Assembly (NCBI GenBank): GCA_043809315.1
Contig: JAZDDX010000024.1
Span: forward strand, 68,167-132,166
Direction of reading: 5' to 3'
From: Pseudomonadota bacterium
Lineage (GTDB): Bacteria > Bdellovibrionota_G > JALEGL01 > DATDPG01
Length of the DNA stretch: 64,000 nt
Shown here: positions 29,407-58,763 of the stretch, one piece after another
Position numbering within the stretch: the stretch's first letter is position 1
Layout: every line of letters begins with the position of its first letter
The notes under the pieces: model-generated
Told to the model about the DNA's origin: nothing
Seen by the model: the letters and a program-made list of their open reading frames with translations, nothing else
Databases searched by the model: none
Program-made: the position numbers and the translations under genes

Positions 29407-30509
29407 ACGCCGCCCGTACAAAACTCAAAATCGTTTTTCTGCTCGGGCTCTTTCTTCCTTCGCCCCTGTTCGCCGAGGGGATCGAACAGCTCTGGCCGGT
29501 GGCTCTGAGCTCCCTGCAGAAACGTCTTCGTGACGATCACATCTCCGAGTCGCAACTGAAGCTGCTCGATCCTGCGAAGCTCAAGTTCGGTGCGGCGGCC
29601 GTCCGGCTCAAGCTTCTCGACAAAATCGCGAACGCACCCGACCCGGAACAGTTCATCACGACGAAGTCGCTCCAGAGGGCGAGGAAGTTCCTTTCGGACC
29701 ATCGGAAGGTCTTGGCGGAGACGTTCAACGAGACGTGCGTCCCCCCCTCGATCACCGTGGCGGTCTTGAGCGTCGAAACGTCGCTCGGGCGTTTCAAGCC
29801 GCAGTTTCCGGTTCTCGCGACGCTTGCGAGCCACGCGACCCTCGGGAACGAAGGATTGAGAGAAGCGCTGATTCCGTCTCTTCTCGAACATGCGCGAAGA
29901 AACCCGCGGCAGTACCAGGGGATGGGGCTGATCGATTGGCGCGCGCGGGCAAAGGAGATCGGGGAAAAGTGGTATCTCCAGCTCCGTTCCTATTTCCTGC
30001 TGGCCGATCAGCTGAAGTGGAGCGAGAGAACGATCCTGGCGATGCGGGGCTCGTTTACGGGGGCGATCGGATACAGCCAATGGCAGCCGGAACGGGCCGA
30101 GGCCCGGATGAAAGATCAAAGGTTCGATCTCTGGAGTTGGAACGATTCGATCTGGCATACGTCCGCGGAATTGGCGGGAAACGACTTCGAATCCGATCCC
30201 GAGAAGGCTCTTAAGAAATACAACGATGTCCGATGGTACCGGGAAGCGGTCTTCAGGATCGCCGGCGAGCTGGGAAGTACCGGAACCGGTCATGCCCGTC
30301 CTGCATCCAACCAAACGATGGTGACTGAAGCTCACCCAACGGAACGACCCGCTCGATGCGGAGTCCCGACTGCAGTTCCTTCTCCAGCGCAGAGCCGAGA
30401 AGTGTCCGCGGGATCGCAGCCGAACTCAAACGATCGATCCAGGGGGATAGAATTGAAACCATCTCTTCAGACCGGTCCGCGGAAATCACCTGGACGAGAC
30501 CGGGAGTAG
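29403..30509 (+). CDS. Lytic murein transglycosylase (MltB/SLT_2-like)
   Basis: ATGA coupling; signal peptide; VETSLG, GSFTGAIGYSQW, YN; low-complexity tail overlaps convergent gene. Confidence 0.7.
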   Translation: MNAARTKLKIVFLLGLFLPSPLFAEGIEQLWPVALSSLQKRLRDDHISESQLKLLDPAKLKFGAAAVRLKLLDKIANAPDPEQFITTKSLQRARKFLSDHRKVLAETFNETCVPPSITVAVLSVETSLGRFKPQFPVLATLASHATLGNEGLREALIPSLLEHARRNPRQYQGMGLIDWRARAKEIGEKWYLQLRSYFLLADQLKWSERTILAMRGSFTGAIGYSQWQPERAEARMKDQRFDLWSWNDSIWHTSAELAGNDFESDPEKALKKYNDVRWYREAVFRIAGELGSTGTGHARPASNQTMVTEAHPTERPARCGVPTAVPSPAQSREVSAGSQPNSNDRSRGIELKPSLQTGPRKSPGRDRE

Positions 30510-32478
30510 AGAACCAAGTCGGCTCAATTCGTTTCGTGCTCACCACGGATAGGCACGGGTGAAACCGGACGTTATCTGGGTTGCCTGTTGTTTGAAGCGA
30601 CCTTGAGCTCCAGATGATCCTGCCCTGGCTACGTTTCGAAGGTCTGCGGTTCCAACGGGAAGATAACGCTTCTGCTTCGCGGATCAGACGATCCGGCGAT
30701 CGGGCGAAGACGACCTGCGGTGACAGACAACCCTGCTGCTCCCAGATGTAGATGTCTTCGATCAGGTTCGTGATCTCCACGTCGTCCGTATCGTCCGTGA
30801 CGACGGCGAACGAGAAGCGCGAACGGTACGGATAGAAACGGGCCTCGGCCGGTACGAAAGAAAAGAGGCGATCGACCGTCTCGTCATCCCCCTGGACGAA
30901 GATATCGGTGGCACCGCGGAACAGTTCGCGCGTAACCGCATCGTCGGAGGAAGAGGTCTCGACGATCGCCGCTTGAGCGGCAAGTTCCGGATCGATCCGG
31001 ACGAGTGTTTCGTGAAGAGCCGTGAGAAGGTTTCCCCCGCGGGACGACGGACGATGAATCGTCGGAACGCCGGTCAGCAGGCCGGCATAGAATCCGAAAA
31101 CACCGGTGACCGGAAGATTACCTGCGGCCACCGAAACGACGAGACGGGGAAATTCATCACGAGCCACAGCTCGCTCCAATTCGGGGCGCGTGAGAGCGCG
31201 AAAGGTCCGGTTCAGTCCTTCGGTTACCGATCCAGGGGAAAAGAACCCCGTGGTATGGACTGTGCCTTCGAACTCACGACGAACAGGAAAATTCTCCACG
31301 AGCCAGAGGTCGGATAATTTCGCAAGAGAATCGATTCCTCGAGCAAGTAGAAGGGACCCGGTACTACGAACGGCCTCTTTAGCTTGCGCGATGGTCGGAG
31401 TGATCGCAGAGCTGCGAAACGGTTCGGGAGAGGAGGTGACGGTCAACGAACATCCTCGGAGCTCGGAATCGCTCACACGTCCCAAGACTTCAAACCCGTC
31501 CTTCGTGCGGCGTCCCCAGTCGCCGGTCAAGAGAGCGGAGATCGAGCCGCGGTTGGCGAGATCGAAGAGGCTCACCATTCCCTCGTTACCCAACGCAACC
31601 TCCTCGTCCTGGGTCGGATCGAGAATCCGGACGGGAGCCCACGCTGGGGAACGATAGACCAAGCGCCCGTCGCGCAATCTTCCCCAGGAAGGAGAGCTCG
31701 TCTCCGTCATTCCGTATTCGCCGAGATACGAAGAGGGTTCGATCCCGAGATGTTCGAACGCCAGCTCCGAGAGAGTCGAACTTTCCGGGACTGTCCGTCT
31801 CCCTTTCCGCCCTCCGGTTTCGAAGAGAGAACTCCTCGGCGGGAGATGGATCTTCGTTCCGGCTCGACGAAGGGCGTCCAGCCAGTCGGAGAGAGCGACA
31901 GAGGTCGCCGCGATGAAGAGAGGGGTTCCCCCGGAGACGGCATGTCGCGCGACCGAGGTCGCTTTTTCGAGGTCCACCGATCCCTCCGAGAACGCATACG
32001 TCGCCCCCCCGGGGAAGAAGGCTCGCACGAGCGTATCGACCATGTGGGCCAACGACGAGCGCGGATTTTCGAAGCGATTCGGTGTGAGCGAAAGGAGGGT
32101 GTCCGTTCCCGGTTGGAAGCCAGTCAGGTCGCGGAAGGAAACGATCGACGCCCGGTCGTACAAATCCAGAGAATCGAGCTCGTGCGTGCCTCGGTCACCG
32201 TTGGTCGTGCCGGAAGTGACGAACGTTGCGACCGTCCGCTCCGTCGGAAATGTCGCGATCCGATGGTGTTTGAAACCGCTCGTCGGGAACGGCGGGATCT
32301 TTTCAAACGAACGGACCGTTTCCGGCGTGATGTCCTGGTTTCGGCAGTAATCCCGGTAGACCGGGATCCTCTCGAACTGGTGACGGAAGAGATCGAGAGC
32401 CAAGCGACGGAAGTCGTCGTCCCGGGGGGCGGCTCCCCCGCGATCGATCAAGGCGAGAATCTCACGATCCAAGTTCAT
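30253..32478 (-). CDS. LuxE-like acyl-protein synthetase fused to LuxC-like acyl-CoA reductase
   Basis: N-half FVTSGTT, ETGGRKG, EYGMTE, LGR...LRGCS; C-half AGNLP, RPSS, QQGCLSPQ, PLGELQSP...DG. Confidence 0.8.
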   Translation of the reverse strand: MNLDREILALIDRGGAAPRDDDFRRLALDLFRHQFERIPVYRDYCRNQDITPETVRSFEKIPPFPTSGFKHHRIATFPTERTVATFVTSGTTNGDRGTHELDSLDLYDRASIVSFRDLTGFQPGTDTLLSLTPNRFENPRSSLAHMVDTLVRAFFPGGATYAFSEGSVDLEKATSVARHAVSGGTPLFIAATSVALSDWLDALRRAGTKIHLPPRSSLFETGGRKGRRTVPESSTLSELAFEHLGIEPSSYLGEYGMTETSSPSWGRLRDGRLVYRSPAWAPVRILDPTQDEEVALGNEGMVSLFDLANRGSISALLTGDWGRRTKDGFEVLGRVSDSELRGCSLTVTSSPEPFRSSAITPTIAQAKEAVRSTGSLLLARGIDSLAKLSDLWLVENFPVRREFEGTVHTTGFFSPGSVTEGLNRTFRALTRPELERAVARDEFPRLVVSVAAGNLPVTGVFGFYAGLLTGVPTIHRPSSRGGNLLTALHETLVRIDPELAAQAAIVETSSSDDAVTRELFRGATDIFVQGDDETVDRLFSFVPAEARFYPYRSRFSFAVVTDDTDDVEITNLIEDIYIWEQQGCLSPQVVFARSPDRLIREAEALSSRWNRRPSKRSQGRIIWSSRSLQTTGNPDNVRFHPCLSVVSTKRIEPTWFSTPGLVQVISADRSEEMVSILSPWIDRLSSAAIPRTLLGSALEKELQSGLRIERVVPLGELQSPSFGWMQDGHDRFRYFPARRRS

Positions 32479-33416
32479 CCTGTCTGTTCCCGTTGTTTCA
32501 CCTTGGCGCGAAGGTCCCAGACAAACCGATCATGGTTCATCATGATTGGATCGATCGTCACCGTCTTATTCGATCCCGAGGAGTCGATGTAACGGACGAA
32601 CGTGAGGGAGGCCCCCCAACCCCACATCTTTCGTCGCGTAGATGTCCCGACGTCTCTTACCCGATTCCAGGGAACCTCAACGCAAGAAAAGAGTCCGTGG
32701 AACACAAAACCTTCGCGATCGACTCGGATCTTCAGGGTGGCGAGGTAGAGAAAGCAAAGAGGAAGAAAGACAACAACCCCCGTCCCCAGACTCTCGACCC
32801 GAGTATTGAAGATTGCGAATCTTGAGAGACCGGTCAGTCCATGGATCAGTCCGACAATGCCTATGTAAGCCATGAACAGGGAGAAGGGACCGAGGAGCGC
32901 CAGGTAACGCGTGCTGAACCGAACCGTGTAGTTATCGGTGCCGCGCTCCGGTTTATGGACCGCTTCGGCGGAAAAGACAAAGGTCCAAGGTACGCTGCTG
33001 AAGATGCCGAAAAAGATCCCTCCGGCAATCTCACCGAGGACGTTTTCTCGAGGGGGCGTTCTGAGAAAGCGATTGGATAGATGCATCAATACGCCGAATA
33101 AGACGCCGCTCATGAGAGTATTCAAAACGAATTGGCGGACGAGTCGGCTTCTTTGTTCGCGGGCCAGCGGGGCAGGGTCTCCCAAACTATCGACGGCGGC
33201 CTGAGAAGCACGATCCGGAGACAACCCGCTTGCTAGGTATTTCTGTTTTGCCTCCTGAAGATGATCGATAACTTCCGCTAACGTTACGAGACGCACTTTT
33301 GCGGAACCCAAGAGGTTCTTGTCGAGTACCTCGATCTGGCGATCAAGGATGGCATCCCCGGTAAGTGCCTCCTTGGGACATTTGGTTTCAAAATTCCTTA
33401 ACAATGAGTTCAACAT
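32475..33416 (-). CDS. Membrane protein with permease-prefix/HAAS-like N-domain
   Basis: EVIDHL...GLSPDRASQAAVDSLGDP, four TMs, PH-like tail; follows PadR gene. Confidence 0.65.
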   Translation of the reverse strand: MLNSLLRNFETKCPKEALTGDAILDRQIEVLDKNLLGSAKVRLVTLAEVIDHLQEAKQKYLASGLSPDRASQAAVDSLGDPAPLAREQRSRLVRQFVLNTLMSGVLFGVLMHLSNRFLRTPPRENVLGEIAGGIFFGIFSSVPWTFVFSAEAVHKPERGTDNYTVRFSTRYLALLGPFSLFMAYIGIVGLIHGLTGLSRFAIFNTRVESLGTGVVVFLPLCFLYLATLKIRVDREGFVFHGLFSCVEVPWNRVRDVGTSTRRKMWGWGASLTFVRYIDSSGSNKTVTIDPIMMNHDRFVWDLRAKVKQREQTG

Positions 33417-33418
33417 GG

Positions 33419-33769
33419 TTACAGATCCTCCCTGGGCAAAACGACTTTCTGAAGAATCGAGGTGACATGTCGCCATTCGGCGATCCGATCCTGGAGCATT
33501 TTTTTACCGGACGGTGTGATCCGGTAGTACTTCCTCGCGGTTCCCCGGTCGCCGGGTTGGTAGTGAGAGGCCACGAAGCCTCGTGATTCCAGGCGATGCA
33601 ACAAGGGATAGAGCGTGGCGTCCCGAAGAAGAGAATCGTTCCCGTCGAGGAGTTTCTGAACGTCTTCGAGGATGCCGAACCCGTAATTTTCTCCGCGCTT
33701 CAACACCGTGAGCACAAGGGCGTCCAGAAGTCCCTTGAGTACCTGCGCATCCGTTCGGGTGGTATGCAT
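33419..33769 (-). CDS. PadR family transcriptional regulator
   Basis: YGFGI, TLYPLLHRLE, RKYYRITPSG. Confidence 0.92.
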   Translation of the reverse strand: MHTTRTDAQVLKGLLDALVLTVLKRGENYGFGILEDVQKLLDGNDSLLRDATLYPLLHRLESRGFVASHYQPGDRGTARKYYRITPSGKKMLQDRIAEWRHVTSILQKVVLPREDL

Positions 33770-33806
33770 GCCATGTAAGGCTTACTATGTATGTCTTAAA
33801 TGTCAA
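33770..33806 (-). promoter_or_regulatory. padR promoter with candidate operator
   Basis: TTGACA at 33806-33801; inverted repeat GTAAG-C-CTTAC over the -10 region. Confidence 0.45.
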
Positions 33807-35085
33807 GCGCTCGAAGTGTCTCGAGTCCCCACCTAAGCTGCCGCTCGGAGATCGTGAGCGGCGGTGTGAGGGAGACGACGTTCCCCGAGGGGCCGCTCGG
33901 GAGAACGATGAGCCCTCGTTGAAGCGCTTTTTTGGCGCATTCAAACGCGAGGCCGGGGCGGCACAGCTCGATCCCGATCATCAGGCCGCGTCCGCGCACC
34001 GATGTCACGATGGAGGTGGGCGTAATCCATCGCTCGATCTCGCGCAGAGCGATCGTTCCCAACTCTTCCGCACGGGCGGAGAGATTCCGTCGTTCGATCT
34101 CGTCGATCGATGCGAGAGCCGCCGCGCAGCCCAAGGGGTGGCCCAGGAAGGTGCTGGTGTGAAGCGCCTCACCGTCGGAGAGGGGCCAGGCAGCCATCGC
34201 TTTCTTCGTTCCGATGCAGGCGGAAAACGGGAGAGTTCCGGTCAGCGCCTTTCCGACGCAGAGAAGATCGGGGACGATCCCCTCCCGGTCGATCGCGAAG
34301 CGCGTGCCGGTCCTGCCGAACCCGGTCATCATCTCGTCCGCGATGAGCAGGACGTCGGCATCCGCCGTGAGCCGACGGAGGGCGCGGAGCCATCCGTCGG
34401 GGGGGACGACGACCCCGGCCCGGCCGAAAATCGGCTCCACGAGCACGGCTCCGATCTCGGCCGATCGCAATACGCTGCCGATCTGCCGGATCGACTCCTC
34501 GGTCGAACGAGGAAGGGGAACCGTGTGCGAGATCTTCGCCAGTTGCTGCGCGAACGGTTCGCGAAAGCGCGGAAGTCCGGAAACGGCCAAAGTTCCGTAC
34601 GTGAGGCCGTGGTAGGCCCCTTCGAATACGACGAGGTCGGGGCGTTTCGTCGCTAGATACGCCGTCTTGATCGCCGCCTCGACCGCCTCCGCCCCCGAAC
34701 TGCAGAGGATGGCCTGGGCCCCCGGTTCCGGAAAGAGGGAGGCGAGTTTTTCGAGAAGCTCCACTTTGATGGACGGAGGGTGGACATCCCCCATCCCGTG
34801 CGGAAGCTTCTCGAGTTGGGCCGCGATCGCGTTGGTCACGGCCGGGGGAGTGTGACCCAGGGAGGCGACGCCGAAGGCGGAGGTGAAGTCGACGAAGAGA
34901 TTTCCGTCCGCATCTACGACGTTCGCTCCGGCAGCCCGTTCCCAGAAGACCGGGAAATCATCGGCGAGATAGGTGATGTTCCGGCACTCGACACGGCGAA
35001 GTCGCTCCGCGAGATCTCGGGAGCGGGGGCCGGGGACCGTCGTTCGAAGGTTCGCGATCCGCTCCCCGAACGGAAGATCGGCCAT
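33796..35085 (-). CDS. Class III PLP aminotransferase (GabT/omega-transaminase-like)
   Basis: SGAEAVE, FEGAYHG, ADEMMTGFGRTG, VGKAL; TGATG coupling with upstream AKR. Confidence 0.9.
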   Translation of the reverse strand: MADLPFGERIANLRTTVPGPRSRDLAERLRRVECRNITYLADDFPVFWERAAGANVVDADGNLFVDFTSAFGVASLGHTPPAVTNAIAAQLEKLPHGMGDVHPPSIKVELLEKLASLFPEPGAQAILCSSGAEAVEAAIKTAYLATKRPDLVVFEGAYHGLTYGTLAVSGLPRFREPFAQQLAKISHTVPLPRSTEESIRQIGSVLRSAEIGAVLVEPIFGRAGVVVPPDGWLRALRRLTADADVLLIADEMMTGFGRTGTRFAIDREGIVPDLLCVGKALTGTLPFSACIGTKKAMAAWPLSDGEALHTSTFLGHPLGCAAALASIDEIERRNLSARAEELGTIALREIERWITPTSIVTSVRGRGLMIGIELCRPGLAFECAKKALQRGLIVLPSGPSGNVVSLTPPLTISERQLRWGLETLRALDI

Positions 35086-36206
35086 CAGGCGACCGCGTCG
35101 ACCACTTTCCGCCACGAGACCGGATCGAGGCGGCGGCGGCGGAGGTATTCGGTGTTCTGATCGACGTGCGCGGTCCGGCTCATCCCGACAAGGGCGGTCG
35201 AGACCCCCGGCGCGCCGGCGGAAAACGCGATCGCGCGCTGAGGATCGTTCGTGGCGTCGGCAAAGAGCGGGGCGAGGGCGGGGGGTAGACGACCCAAGAG
35301 CTTCCCCTGCAGGAGGGGAACGCTCGTCATGACCATGAACCCCAGCTCGTGTGCCAGACGAAGGAAGGTCACGAGATCCCCGCGCCACTCCTGCGTCGGC
35401 CGGGTGGCCGCTTCCCGCAGCATGAAGTTGAACGGGAGCTGGACCGCCTTGAAATGATGTTTCTCTCCGGCGACCGAGTGGGCGAGTTCGAGAAAATGAG
35501 AGAGGGAATGATGGCGGGGTTCCCCGGGGGCCATTCGGAAGCCGTCCCAGGTAGCCACGCCGTATCGGGCGATCCGCCCTTCGTCCACTTCGTCTTCGAG
35601 TGCTTCGAACGCGCCACGGATCCTGTCGTCCAACTCGCTTTCAGAGATCTCCGAAAGCTGGATCTCGACGTTATGCAGATAATAGATGTCGATCGTCTCG
35701 AGCCCCAGGTTCTTGAGGCTCTGGCCGATTTGATGACGCAAGTAGGTGGGCTCGATGCAGTGGCATTCCGCGACGATGTCGCTGGGAGCGATGATTCCCG
35801 GCTCGAAGAGGTTCGCGTCCATCCAATCGAGCGGGTTCTGCGGCGGCTCGTTCTCGAACGGAAGGAATCCCCCTTTGGTGGCGACGACGATCTCCTCCCG
35901 GCCGATTTTCCCTGAGGTGATCAGTTCCGCCAGCGCTTCCCCGATCGCCCGCTCGCTCCGTTGAAACCGATAATTGATCGCGGTGTCGATGACGTTCACC
36001 CCGCGCTCGACGGCCCGAACGACGGAGTTGGTGTAGCGTTGATCGGTTTCGTCGTCCCAGCGGCCGATGTAGCTTCCGATCCCGAGGTCGGAGAGGCTCA
36101 ACCCCCCCGCCATCCGGTAATGTTCGGAGAGGTTCTCGGTATGGCGCGCGGCGAAGCGCGAGGTCCCTTCCTGGGTGGCTCGGCCGCGGATCGAATCGGT
36201 CGTCAT
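35085..36206 (-). CDS. Aldo/keto reductase
   Basis: IDTAINY, VATKGG, IDIYYLHN, VQLPFN. Confidence 0.9.
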   Translation of the reverse strand: MTTDSIRGRATQEGTSRFAARHTENLSEHYRMAGGLSLSDLGIGSYIGRWDDETDQRYTNSVVRAVERGVNVIDTAINYRFQRSERAIGEALAELITSGKIGREEIVVATKGGFLPFENEPPQNPLDWMDANLFEPGIIAPSDIVAECHCIEPTYLRHQIGQSLKNLGLETIDIYYLHNVEIQLSEISESELDDRIRGAFEALEDEVDEGRIARYGVATWDGFRMAPGEPRHHSLSHFLELAHSVAGEKHHFKAVQLPFNFMLREAATRPTQEWRGDLVTFLRLAHELGFMVMTSVPLLQGKLLGRLPPALAPLFADATNDPQRAIAFSAGAPGVSTALVGMSRTAHVDQNTEYLRRRRLDPVSWRKVVDAVA

Positions 36207-36239
36207 CTTCCGGCAGAGAACCATTGCGCAATATGGGTG

Positions 36240-36806
36240 TCAAGGCGCGGGGAGCACGATTCCAAATGAGCGGGTCCGGATCTTGGCCGCGCCGTTGGTC
36301 GGATCGCCGTCGAGATCGATGGCGGTCACGCCGCCGTCCGGGAGAGCCCCCGGTGTTTCGGTCGGGTCGCAGACCGATAGGTCGATCCGCAGGCGCGTGG
36401 TTTTCGCGAGCTCTCCGGGGTTCGGGGAGTCCGGAAGGAAATGTCCGTCGGCGTCGTAGGCGGTGAAGCGGATCGAGAAGACGTGGGAGAGGAGCGTCTT
36501 CCCTCCTTCCGGTGCGGTCCGGACGATCCGGAAGTCGGGACTTGTTCCTTCGATTCGGTAGGAAAAGGCTCCGCGGTTGCCATCCCCCGATAGAAACGTG
36601 GGGACGAGCCCCTTGAGACGCGCTCCCGGGACCTCGAGATCGGCGCGAAGCTGCTTTTCGACCGGCTCGACGATCGCGTCGGTTCCTTCACTTTTCAGAA
36701 CGCGGCGGATCGTTTTCGTCAGCGTTGCTGCGAGAATTGAGACGATCAGCAGCGTTACGAGGAGTTCGATGACGCCGAATCCGGATCGGCCTATACTTCG
36801 GATCAT
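36240..36806 (-). CDS. Prepilin-type N-terminal cleavage/methylation domain protein
   Basis: RSG|FGVIELLVTLLIVSILAA class III signal with Glu at +5; alternative start 36857. Confidence 0.7.
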   Translation of the reverse strand: MIRSIGRSGFGVIELLVTLLIVSILAATLTKTIRRVLKSEGTDAIVEPVEKQLRADLEVPGARLKGLVPTFLSGDGNRGAFSYRIEGTSPDFRIVRTAPEGGKTLLSHVFSIRFTAYDADGHFLPDSPNPGELAKTTRLRIDLSVCDPTETPGALPDGGVTAIDLDGDPTNGAAKIRTRSFGIVLPAP

Positions 36807-37281
36807 GCGCGGAAAACCGGACAAGGGTGGGATCGGTCTTTGGCTTGTTCTTATCATTCTGGTGGCCGGCGGATGGGCCGGGTTCCGGTTCGGGACTCTC
36901 TATTTCGACAACAGCACGATCGCGAACCAAGTGGCTACCCTGGCCGATCAAAGTTTGATCGATCGTTCGGTCGATGCCAAGAAGGAAATCGCCAGGATTC
37001 TCGATGCCTACGAAGTGAAGATCGATCCGGAAAAAGTCCGGGTCGACTTCAACGAGAAGCATGACCGCATTACAATCGCGTTTGAGTACTCGAGGAGTGT
37101 CGACCTGGGCTTGGCGGCACCCCAGGTTCCGTTCCACGTGTTCGAGCAGCGGGAGTCGGCGCGTGCGGTCGGGGTTGTGCAGGGAATTGGCCGGACGATC
37201 GACAACTCGATGAACAACGTCCCTGCGCAGAAGTACCAGCAGGCGGTCAAGCAGGCGTTTGAAACGCCGGCAGCGCGATAA
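36805..37281 (+). CDS. Single-TM pilin-like protein (DUF4845-like)
   Basis: MRGKPDKGGIGLWLVLIILVAGGWAGFRFGTLYF; TATACT 7 nt upstream. Confidence 0.6.
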   Translation: MRGKPDKGGIGLWLVLIILVAGGWAGFRFGTLYFDNSTIANQVATLADQSLIDRSVDAKKEIARILDAYEVKIDPEKVRVDFNEKHDRITIAFEYSRSVDLGLAAPQVPFHVFEQRESARAVGVVQGIGRTIDNSMNNVPAQKYQQAVKQAFETPAAR

Positions 37282-55881: not shown

Positions 55882-56539
55882 TGCGGGGGATCGGGATCGC
55901 TCTCACGGCGGCTGCTGCGCTTTACTACGGTTTTCTGAATTTCTCCCCGCTCGATCGTTATTCGCGGGAAGCCACGAACCCTCTCGATTACCGGAAGCTC
56001 GATCTTGAACGGGCCCTCACGGCGGCAGACCGGGAGATGACGATCCCAGAGGGTGGATTCGAGAAACTCGGCGAGATGCGGAGCGAACGGATGTGGATCT
56101 CTCTCGAGTTGGCCCGTCGCAGGTCGGGGGTCGGCTCCTGGATCTGGGCGGTTGGTCTGGCCGGTGTCACTCTGTTTCTGATTTCATTCGCGCGAGGCCC
56201 AAAGAGACGATCGAAGCGGAAGGGTAAAGATCCGTCGGTTCCCGCGATCGAAGTGCGGGAAGCGCCAGCCCGAGAGGTTTATGTGGATGATTGGGAGTAC
56301 CAGCGGCAGCGGGAGGGGGGGTTCCTCTCGCGCGAGGAGGCGGTGACCTGGCTCGTGAAAGACCCCTTGAAAAAGTGCGATTACTGCGGCGCGGAGATGA
56401 AACCATCCGCGGCAGGGAATCAGGAGGGGATCGAGCTGGTTACGTTCTACAAGAAGGTCCCGACCGGGGCGAAAGATCTCCGCGTGATTCTCGGGAGCTA
56501 CTGGTTCGTTCGGGCGGCGTCGGATCTCACGTGCAGCGG

Positions 56540-56564
<25 letters not shown>
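55881..56564 (+). CDS. Hypothetical membrane protein with C-terminal zinc ribbon
   Basis: Two TMs; CDYC...CSGC; overlaps udg stop. Confidence 0.6.

Positions 56565-58763
<2,199 letters not shown>

Follow-up and report, generated by a model that had tools for sequence, protein, structure and literature searches.

We analysed a stretch of 64,000 nucleotides (hereafter, the window) from contig JAZDDX010000024.1 (positions 68,167 to 132,166, forward strand) of a Pseudomonadota bacterium (assembly GCA_043809315.1; GTDB lineage Bacteria; Bdellovibrionota_G; JALEGL01; DATDPG01), whose genome is 96.13% complete and is referred to below as G000; four other fusion-bearing genomes of the same family are G001-G004. 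The reverse strand of the window encodes a 741-residue protein in which a LuxE-like and a LuxC-like half are joined in one uninterrupted open reading frame (ORF) and, upstream of it, a class III pyridoxal phosphate (PLP) aminotransferase and an aldo-keto reductase (AKR). This work concerns the module formed by the fused gene and the aminotransferase gene, and its putative role in making 7-aminomethyl-7-deazaguanine (preQ1), a precursor of queuosine. An initial annotation, made from the sequence alone, had described a translationally coupled AKR-aminotransferase pair upstream of the fusion. The two genes do lie on the same strand and share one base (TGATG), but that description overlooked that the aminotransferase gene does not adjoin the fused gene: genes for a PadR-family regulator and a membrane protein lie between them, and the stop codon of the latter overlaps the start of the fused gene by four bases (ATGA).

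The fused protein matches the Pfam families LuxE (PF04443; residues 23-347, 57 bits against a gathering cut-off of 24.9) and LuxC (PF05893; residues 446-601, 79.5 bits against 21), and does not reach the equivalog level of the NCBIfam models for LuxE (NF052244; 52.6 against 550) or LuxC (NF052251; 26.8 against 750). The two cysteine contexts from which the initial annotation had recognized the halves are present, Cys343 within RGCS and Cys584 within QQGCLSP, and the catalytic residues are intact. The sole solved relatives found by sequence are both chains of the Photobacterium phosphoreum LuxC-LuxE complex (PDB 7XC6). Alignment to chain 7xc6_E equates K225, R334 and C343 of the fusion with K238, R355 and C364 of Photobacterium LuxE, and C584 is the counterpart of C296 in LuxC, all four being named in the report of that complex (PMC9157457; this and the other articles cited are drawn on for the portions available). 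K225, R334, C343 and C584 are invariant in 12/12 aligned fused proteins, and the first three are invariant in each of two alignments. An AlphaFold2 model (mean predicted local distance difference test score, pLDDT, 86.1; predicted template modelling score 0.83) consists of two ordered halves with a low-confidence stretch at residues 338-359 between them (pLDDT below 50), and the sequence that follows RGCS in the fused homologs is variable and rich in Pro and Ser. The LuxC half of the model (358-741) aligns to residues 45-458 of 7xc6_A with a Z score of 32.5 and a root-mean-square deviation of 3.1 over 371 residues (VIA-align), at an identity of about 16% in the structural alignment of the fusion to Photobacterium LuxCE. 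The best Foldseek matches of the model include the phenylacetate-coenzyme A (CoA) ligase PaaK1, the adenylating enzyme used for modelling LuxE (PMC9157457). About 15 variable residues tie the cysteine arm to LuxC, which would fix a 1:1 pairing.

The search for relatives returned 16 near-full-length homologs, of which ten are 40-48% identical over 91-99% of the query and an eleventh is 31% identical over 98%, and a profile search yielded additional fused homologs. These proteins were drawn from ENA, NCBI, JGI and Logan assemblies, and one sits on a single-contig closed chromosome (L002, that is, G004). A quick, midpoint-rooted IQ-TREE tree was built on 117 rows, comprising all 34 fused rows (the window protein, two duplicates and 31 other distinct proteins), all unfused locus rows and every third unfused protein. 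The concern that the junction might be an assembly artefact is answered: fused homologs from other assemblies, the closed chromosome included, rule it out, and the LuxE-LuxC fusion is one real protein. The one sequencing run examined for G000 itself, as contigs of low depth, contains no piece that crosses the junction (around 31400-31450) and one 151-base piece that spans the AKR/aminotransferase overlap. In the tree, the window fusion falls within a 14-row, all-fused clade (Shimodaira-Hasegawa-like approximate likelihood ratio test, 100). Because the fused label changes 10 times, with at least three of the changes forced by well-supported (starred) branches, the fusion in E-to-C order probably arose several times from adjacent genes. 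Other fusions occur within the module as well, namely of a Zn-alcohol dehydrogenase to LuxE in P0127 and P0133 and of LuxC to a more distant class III aminotransferase at L024:8399-11446.

The linkage of the aminotransferase was examined at 126 loci from genomes and metagenomes, 55 of which have at least 3 kb on both sides. A same-strand homolog (at least 200 bits) was found at 48 of the 126 loci and at 29 of the 55 with full flanks, and the association of the aminotransferase with luxE-like genes is not confined to one phylum. The synteny with luxE/luxC homologs on which the initial annotation had staked its pathway therefore extends well outside this family, and gene linkage identifies the aminotransferase as a core member of the module. 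The protein matches Pfam PF00202 with 321.6 bits and stays below all listed NCBIfam cut-offs, those of the gamma-aminobutyrate (GABA)/ornithine type included (best, 299 against 639). Its PLP lysine (K279) and pyridine-binding aspartate (D250) are kept in all 46 linked homologs, which additionally share the clade-specific invariant residues G99-D100, R222, W300 and H309-T310. The nearest solved structures are GABA and putrescine transaminases; at the position of the arginine in the HGRT motif of GABA transaminase 4atp, which we take to bind the substrate carboxylate, all 46 homologs have Leu or Met (Leu161 here). It is tempting to speculate that an invariant aspartate could read a guanine-like edge, by analogy with Tgt. 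The segment 38305-42287 of the window encodes an HpnN-like MMPL transporter that scores under its cut-off and, divergent from it, another class III aminotransferase, which shares 30% identity with that of the module and resembles hpnO; this second aminotransferase gene is also found near the module in G003 and G004.

The AKR behaves differently. It keeps D80, Y85, K117 and H184, which we take to be the AKR catalytic tetrad, and its gene lies upstream of the module in four of the five genomes of the family, with no copy found in the fifth, the closed chromosome G004. Beyond the family, a search of 46 other luxE-like genomes found a close ortholog in only two, each time unlinked and on a different contig; among 16 QueC-positive Myxococcota, one has such an ortholog. 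The wider linkage of the AKR to luxE/luxC homologs presumed by the initial annotation was therefore not borne out, and this distribution rules the AKR out as a core member. It may be an accessory that deals with an aldehyde/alcohol pair, or a passenger. A Gfo/Idh/MocA oxidoreductase gene lies on the same strand near the module at 10 of the 126 loci (for example, L023:7595-8683); with low confidence, this neighbour, the AKR and the Zn-alcohol dehydrogenase-LuxE fusions hint at the handling of an aldehyde or alcohol side product. Directly upstream of the AKR gene, at 36240-37281, is a pair of overlapping ORFs in divergent orientation, one of which has a prepilin-type N-terminus; a similar pair occupies the same place in G001 and lies inside the folE cluster in G003.

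The remaining queuosine genes of G000 define the context in which we interpret the module. The genome has folE, queD, queE, tgt, queA and queG, the last over its cut-off. It has three paralogs of 6-pyruvoyltetrahydropterin synthase with the motifs CX3HGH, EX2HGH and CX5HGH (L127:200-610 and L128:1288-2273; contigs C36 and C27), two of them convergent beside folE; the CX3HGH class is presumably the queD type, and the QueD score is slightly under the equivalog cut-off. QueA acts on preQ1-tRNA. The Tgt translation contains the motifs DEC and GGLSVGE, which we read, by motif rather than by alignment, as the Cys158 and Val233 of preQ1-type Tgt enzymes (PMC3660597). QueC and QueF were found neither by profile nor by tblastn with the copies of relatives, and profiles found neither QueH nor the salvage transporter YhhQ/Vut_1; QueT/ECF (energy-coupling factor)-type transporters were not searched for. 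Weak QueF matches in G000, G001, G003 and G004 were discarded, as they fall on folE (position checked in the four genomes, family scan made on the G000 copy). The genes up- and downstream are thus present while QueC and QueF are missing, and the gap in the pathway is exactly the conversion of 7-carboxy-7-deazaguanine (CDG) to preQ1. As this conversion turns a carboxylate into an aminomethyl group, it matches the work of an acid reductase and a transaminase.

A survey of related and unrelated genomes shows that this gap accompanies the module elsewhere. Within a sample of 17 genomes of the phylum, the fusion, QueE and Tgt are present in all five members of the family, in which no QueC reaches the cut-off and no QueF match exceeds 29 bits; among the other 12, seven have QueC, QueF and QueE without the module and five (58-96% complete) have none of these. 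In 121 genomes of Myxococcota (the phylum of G099), a LuxE-like gene is present in 97; QueE occurs in 94 of these, a QueF-like match in one, and QueC, or even a QueC-like gene at E 1e-12, in none. The single QueF-like exception (G193; L183) lacks a cysteine at the position where it is found in two true QueFs. The 24 Myxococcota lacking a LuxE-like gene have QueC over the cut-off in 22 cases, QueF in 19 and QueE in 19, and the two without QueC over the cut-off (G127 and G171) are missing QueE and QueF too. Across 43 further luxE-like genomes (G101 left out), QueC exceeded the cut-off in one, QueF was found in none and QueE was matched in 32 with a single query; ten weak QueE matches that were inspected contain QueE-like motifs. 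As a baseline, QueF is present in 36/60 unrelated luxE-negative genomes. In Bacteroidota with a LuxE-like gene (L025, L027, L028, L032, L037-L040 and L045), QueC and QueF were not found and seven of nine have a QueE-like match. G065 does not figure among the module-positive genomes: it has QueC and QueF, and its only luxE/luxC pair is distant (48 bits), lies next to genes that by inspection resemble an acyl-CoA ligase and a carrier protein, and was taken to belong to a different subfamily. The contrast is seen in at least two phyla plus single genomes of others (G045, G048 and G054), and the distribution of the module mirrors the loss of QueC and QueF.

Taken together, these results point towards a replacement of QueC and QueF by the fusion and the aminotransferase, which would make preQ1 by an acid-to-aldehyde-to-amine route; we put the probability of this proposal at about 75%. 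In it, FolE, QueD and QueE would make CDG, whose carboxylate the LuxE-like domain would adenylate with ATP (K225/R334) to CDG-AMP. The CDG moiety would then be captured as a thioester on Cys343 and passed by the flexible arm to Cys584, within the LuxC-like part of the same chain, where reduction by NAD(P)H would release 7-formyl-7-deazaguanine. The PLP enzyme (K279) would transaminate this aldehyde to preQ1, and Tgt, QueA and QueG would build the latter into tRNA. Such a two-cysteine relay is described, in the available part of the report, for Photobacterium LuxCE on myristate only (PMC9157457), and 7-formyl-7-deazaguanine is a known, chemically accessible compound that is released by QueF mutants (PMC13740343). 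The case is a comparative one, built on folds, catalytic residues, gene linkage and the pathway gap, all directly seen; from these we infer CDG as the substrate, the aldehyde intermediate, preQ1 as the product and the cofactor preference.

Gene neighbourhoods bear on the nature of the substrate. A same-strand queE lies upstream of the module at 15 of the 126 loci and is the commonest other neighbour of known function and the only recurring pathway neighbour; the queE-linked radical S-adenosylmethionine protein scores 306.8 against a cut-off of 300 for TIGR04349. A queD-like gene is near the module at 2-3 of the 126 loci. In G048 (L147:7655-11359) luxE and luxC are unfused and the pair is adjoined at its end by a convergent tgt, the genome having no close aminotransferase ortholog, and in G054 (L148:10393-10719) a T-fold protein of 109 residues, which matches QueF-II weakly (27.6 bits), keeps the Cys and lacks the QPD motif, is encoded between the aminotransferase and luxE-like genes. 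No acyl carrier protein (ACP) or fatty-acid gene is found among the 29 recurring neighbour clusters scanned. The pathway envisaged in the initial annotation, in which the fusion reduces fatty acids and the aminotransferase and AKR turn the aldehydes into fatty amines and fatty alcohols for lipids, is in line with the activity of the only characterised LuxCE on myristate (PMC9157457), with the alkylamines made by the thioester reductase and omega-transaminase TabE/TabA of tambjamine synthesis (bioRxiv 2025.08.11.669332) and with the coupling of the AKR and aminotransferase genes here. Nevertheless, it leaves both the exclusion of QueC and QueF and the queE linkage unexplained, the AKR is dispensable and the genome has no LuxD. 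Furthermore, the segment P460-P488 of a neighbouring subunit completes a hydrophobic fatty-acyl cleft more than 40 angstrom long in Photobacterium LuxC (PMC9157457), whereas the last residue of the modelled LuxC half aligns to chain position 458, so that this cleft-forming element is absent; unfused LuxC partners likewise terminate shortly after the matching H-D-G-type motif. The exclusion pattern, the queE linkage and the missing element together disfavour a lipid substrate, and we regard this alternative as very improbable. What stands of the original idea is a predicted single-chain, ATP- and NAD(P)H-dependent carboxylate reductase feeding a transaminase, as the intact residues and the linkage suggest, and what falls away is its lipid substrate and alcohol branch. 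Bioluminescence is ruled out, since the absence of luciferase and LuxD genes already remarked on for the window holds for the whole 96% complete genome (no match to PF00296 or to the LuxD family, PF02273).

Several observations weigh against the replacement of QueC and QueF by the module. First, no que gene adjoins the module here or at the other loci of the family, queA and tgt lying about 20 kb from the fusion, and Rfam gave no preQ1 riboswitch or other match in the window; the 15 queE-linked loci are 61-77% or more alike and by inspection, without a tree, look like one lineage. Second, a QueC-like gene of divergent sequence, scoring 75-86 bits to TIGR00364 against a cut-off of 150, is retained in G001-G003, G054 has the same type elsewhere in its genome (L155), and one luxE-like genome, G096, has QueC over the cut-off. 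Third, 11 of the 43 further luxE-like draft genomes have no QueE match with the single query used. Fourth, no close aminotransferase ortholog was found in any of the nine Bacteroidota with a LuxE-like gene or in G102, and only distant ones in G045 and G048, so that the amine step there would need another enzyme. Finally, genomes within a phylum are related and the counts overstate their independence.

The divergent QueC-like genes suggest that the module might act on a deazaguanine in another way, either starting from 7-amido-7-deazaguanine (ADG) or another product of the QueC-like enzyme, or leading to another 7-substituted base, such as a hydroxymethyl base formed by accessory oxidoreductases. 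Their place in the folE-queD cluster of G001-G003 fits such a role, as do the three unrelated oxidoreductase families beside or fused to the module (AKR, Gfo/Idh/MocA and Zn-alcohol dehydrogenase) already mentioned. The encoded proteins keep the PP-loop and the zinc cysteines, have a GLxWE motif and lack YPDCR; other divergent QueC-like forms occur in G048, G089 and G171. No QueF is present in G001-G003, so these genes cannot complete the standard route there. No QueC-like gene was found alongside the fusion in G000 or in the closed chromosome G004, nor in the 97 Myxococcota with a LuxE-like gene. The Tgt motifs are of the preQ1 type and QueA requires the aminomethyl group (PMC5699537); we consider this alternative improbable. 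In G004, a second folK and a folB-type gene occupy the slot of the QueC-like gene; a replacement of FolK by the QueC-like protein was ruled out, as all five genomes of the family have FolK elsewhere.

The relatedness of the genomes also leaves room for a module that reduces and aminates some other small acid (an amino-acid side chain, a polyamine or a cofactor precursor), the QueC/QueF pattern then reflecting lineage history and preQ1 being salvaged. Tgt-positive, QueF-negative genomes have indeed been read as salvagers (PMC5699537), and GABA and putrescine transaminases are the nearest solved relatives of the aminotransferase. But salvagers would not be expected to retain QueE, which 94 of 97 Myxococcota do, and no YhhQ was found in G000, QueT/ECF transporters lying outside that search; moreover, the exclusion recurs in the order of G000 itself, in Myxococcota and in single genomes of other phyla, and the position of the carboxylate-binding arginine is occupied by Leu or Met. 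This explanation, too, seems to us improbable, if somewhat less so than a lipid pathway.

With regard to the two genes that separate the aminotransferase from the fusion, their GC content (0.56 for the PadR gene and 0.53 for the membrane gene) compares with 0.58-0.65 for the flanking genes. Neither occurs in this interval in G001, G003 and G004, in which the aminotransferase gene runs straight up to the fusion, and this rules the two out as module members; in G002 a contig break falls in this interval. By this comparison they represent a two-gene insertion within the operon, which may have placed the fusion under PadR control. A promoter and terminator scan gave results at chance level. The coordinates of all features are collected in Table 1.

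Table 1 Features of the window and divergent QueC-like genes of related genomes, with the proposed roles of the module proteins
Feature	Position	Strand	Basis and remarks
LuxE-LuxC fusion	30253..32478	-	741 aa, uninterrupted ORF; Pfam, homologs, AlphaFold2; proposed single-chain CDG reductase
LuxE-like adenylation/thioester domain	31438..32478	-	aa 1-347; alignment to 7xc6_E
Cys343 and poorly conserved linker (putative swinging arm, far end tied to LuxC)	31402..31452	-	aa 343-359; low pLDDT, variable sequence
LuxC-like thioester reductase domain	30256..31407	-	aa 358-741, catalytic C584; structural alignment to 7xc6_A
Class III PLP aminotransferase	33796..35085	-	429 aa; Pfam PF00202; K279, D250; proposed 7-formyl-7-deazaguanine aminotransferase
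AKR	35085..36206	-	Pfam PF00248; ORF 35085-36224, second ATG at 36206
PadR-family regulator	33419..33769	-	Pfam PF03551
Membrane protein, permease-prefix domain	32475..33476	-	NCBIfam NF038403, over cut-off; likely start 33416
queA	56291..57628	+	ORF limits; family match from about aa 92; TIGR00113 262 bits against 267.45 and NF001140 309 against 324, both just under
tgt, bacterial preQ1-inserting type	57445..58746	+	ORF limits; family match from about aa 77; TIGR00430 490.7 bits, over cut-off
Divergent QueC-like gene (G001)	L151:3644-4315		folE-queD-pteridine reductase cluster
Divergent QueC-like gene (G003)	L152:7652-8344		folE-queD-pteridine reductase cluster
Divergent QueC-like gene (G002)	L153:5520-6212		folE-queD-pteridine reductase cluster

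The bacterial queuosine pathway has been treated as solved, and Tgt-positive genomes without QueC and QueF as those of salvagers (PMC5699537). We consider it only slightly less probable than the replacement itself that the module represents a second way of making preQ1 de novo, which bypasses the nitrile, predominates in some phyla (97/121 Myxococcota sampled) and is encoded here in two proteins, one of them a natural, carrier-protein-free, single-chain reductase for a heteroaromatic acid, whose E-C fusion arose several times. If so, many presumed salvagers would make preQ1 themselves, which would alter the set of queuine-precursor suppliers in soils, sediments and waters. It would also explain what the luxE/luxC homologs that are widespread in non-luminous bacteria do, an open question in the available part of a study in which the luxE homolog of a non-luminous Bacteroidota species was deleted and its biochemical role left open (PMC4772473), and it would point to an origin of the light-organ reductase by recruitment from a broader acid-reductase family. 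The fusion, with its arm tied at both ends, might serve as a model for the 30-angstrom acyl hand-over between LuxE and LuxC, and is a candidate aromatic-acid reductase that would need no phosphopantetheinyl transferase.

Compared with QueC and QueF, which convert CDG to preQ1 through 7-cyano-7-deazaguanine (preQ0), the module has the same proposed substrate and product. Like them, it would activate the carboxylate with ATP, as QueC does, and use NAD(P)H to reduce an intermediate bound to a cysteine. In contrast, the module proteins are unrelated to QueC and QueF, the intermediate would be an aldehyde and not a nitrile, so that no preQ0 would form, the nitrogen would come from an amino donor through PLP, and the reduction would involve two electrons instead of four. 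Carboxylic acid reductases of the nonribosomal peptide synthetase-like type (adenylation, thiolation and reductase domains) also take a free acid to an aldehyde in a single chain with ATP and NADPH. Unlike them, the fusion has no phosphopantetheine carrier domain, its reductase has the aldehyde dehydrogenase fold and not that of short-chain dehydrogenases/reductases, and the cysteine arm would act as the carrier. The protein families themselves are known. In the open literature (titles and abstract starts, with subscription journals and supplements outside the scope), we found neither a link between LuxE/LuxC and queuosine nor a natural fusion, hence neither the pathway role nor the fused form, and the accessible portion of PMC12041015 describes LuxE/LuxC only as a two-subunit complex. 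The best match in both sequence and structure is the Photobacterium LuxC-LuxE complex (PDB 7XC6; PMC9157457), with the same folds and catalytic counterparts. That system is made of two chains, and the cysteine arm of its LuxE is a free C-terminal tail; the fusion is one chain in E-to-C order with its arm tied to LuxC, is partnered with an aminotransferase and lacks the P460-P488 element, and neither luciferase nor LuxD was found in its genome. Finally, the tambjamine enzymes TabE/TabA and TamH (bioRxiv 2025.08.11.669332) and the prodigiosin enzyme PigE (NCBIfam NF053554) resemble the module in reducing a thioester to an aldehyde that then undergoes class III transamination. Whereas those systems take acyl-ACP or acyl-CoA within secondary-metabolite clusters, in the module an adenylating LuxE-type domain would load the free acid, no ACP is linked to it, and its genes behave as single-copy housekeeping genes.

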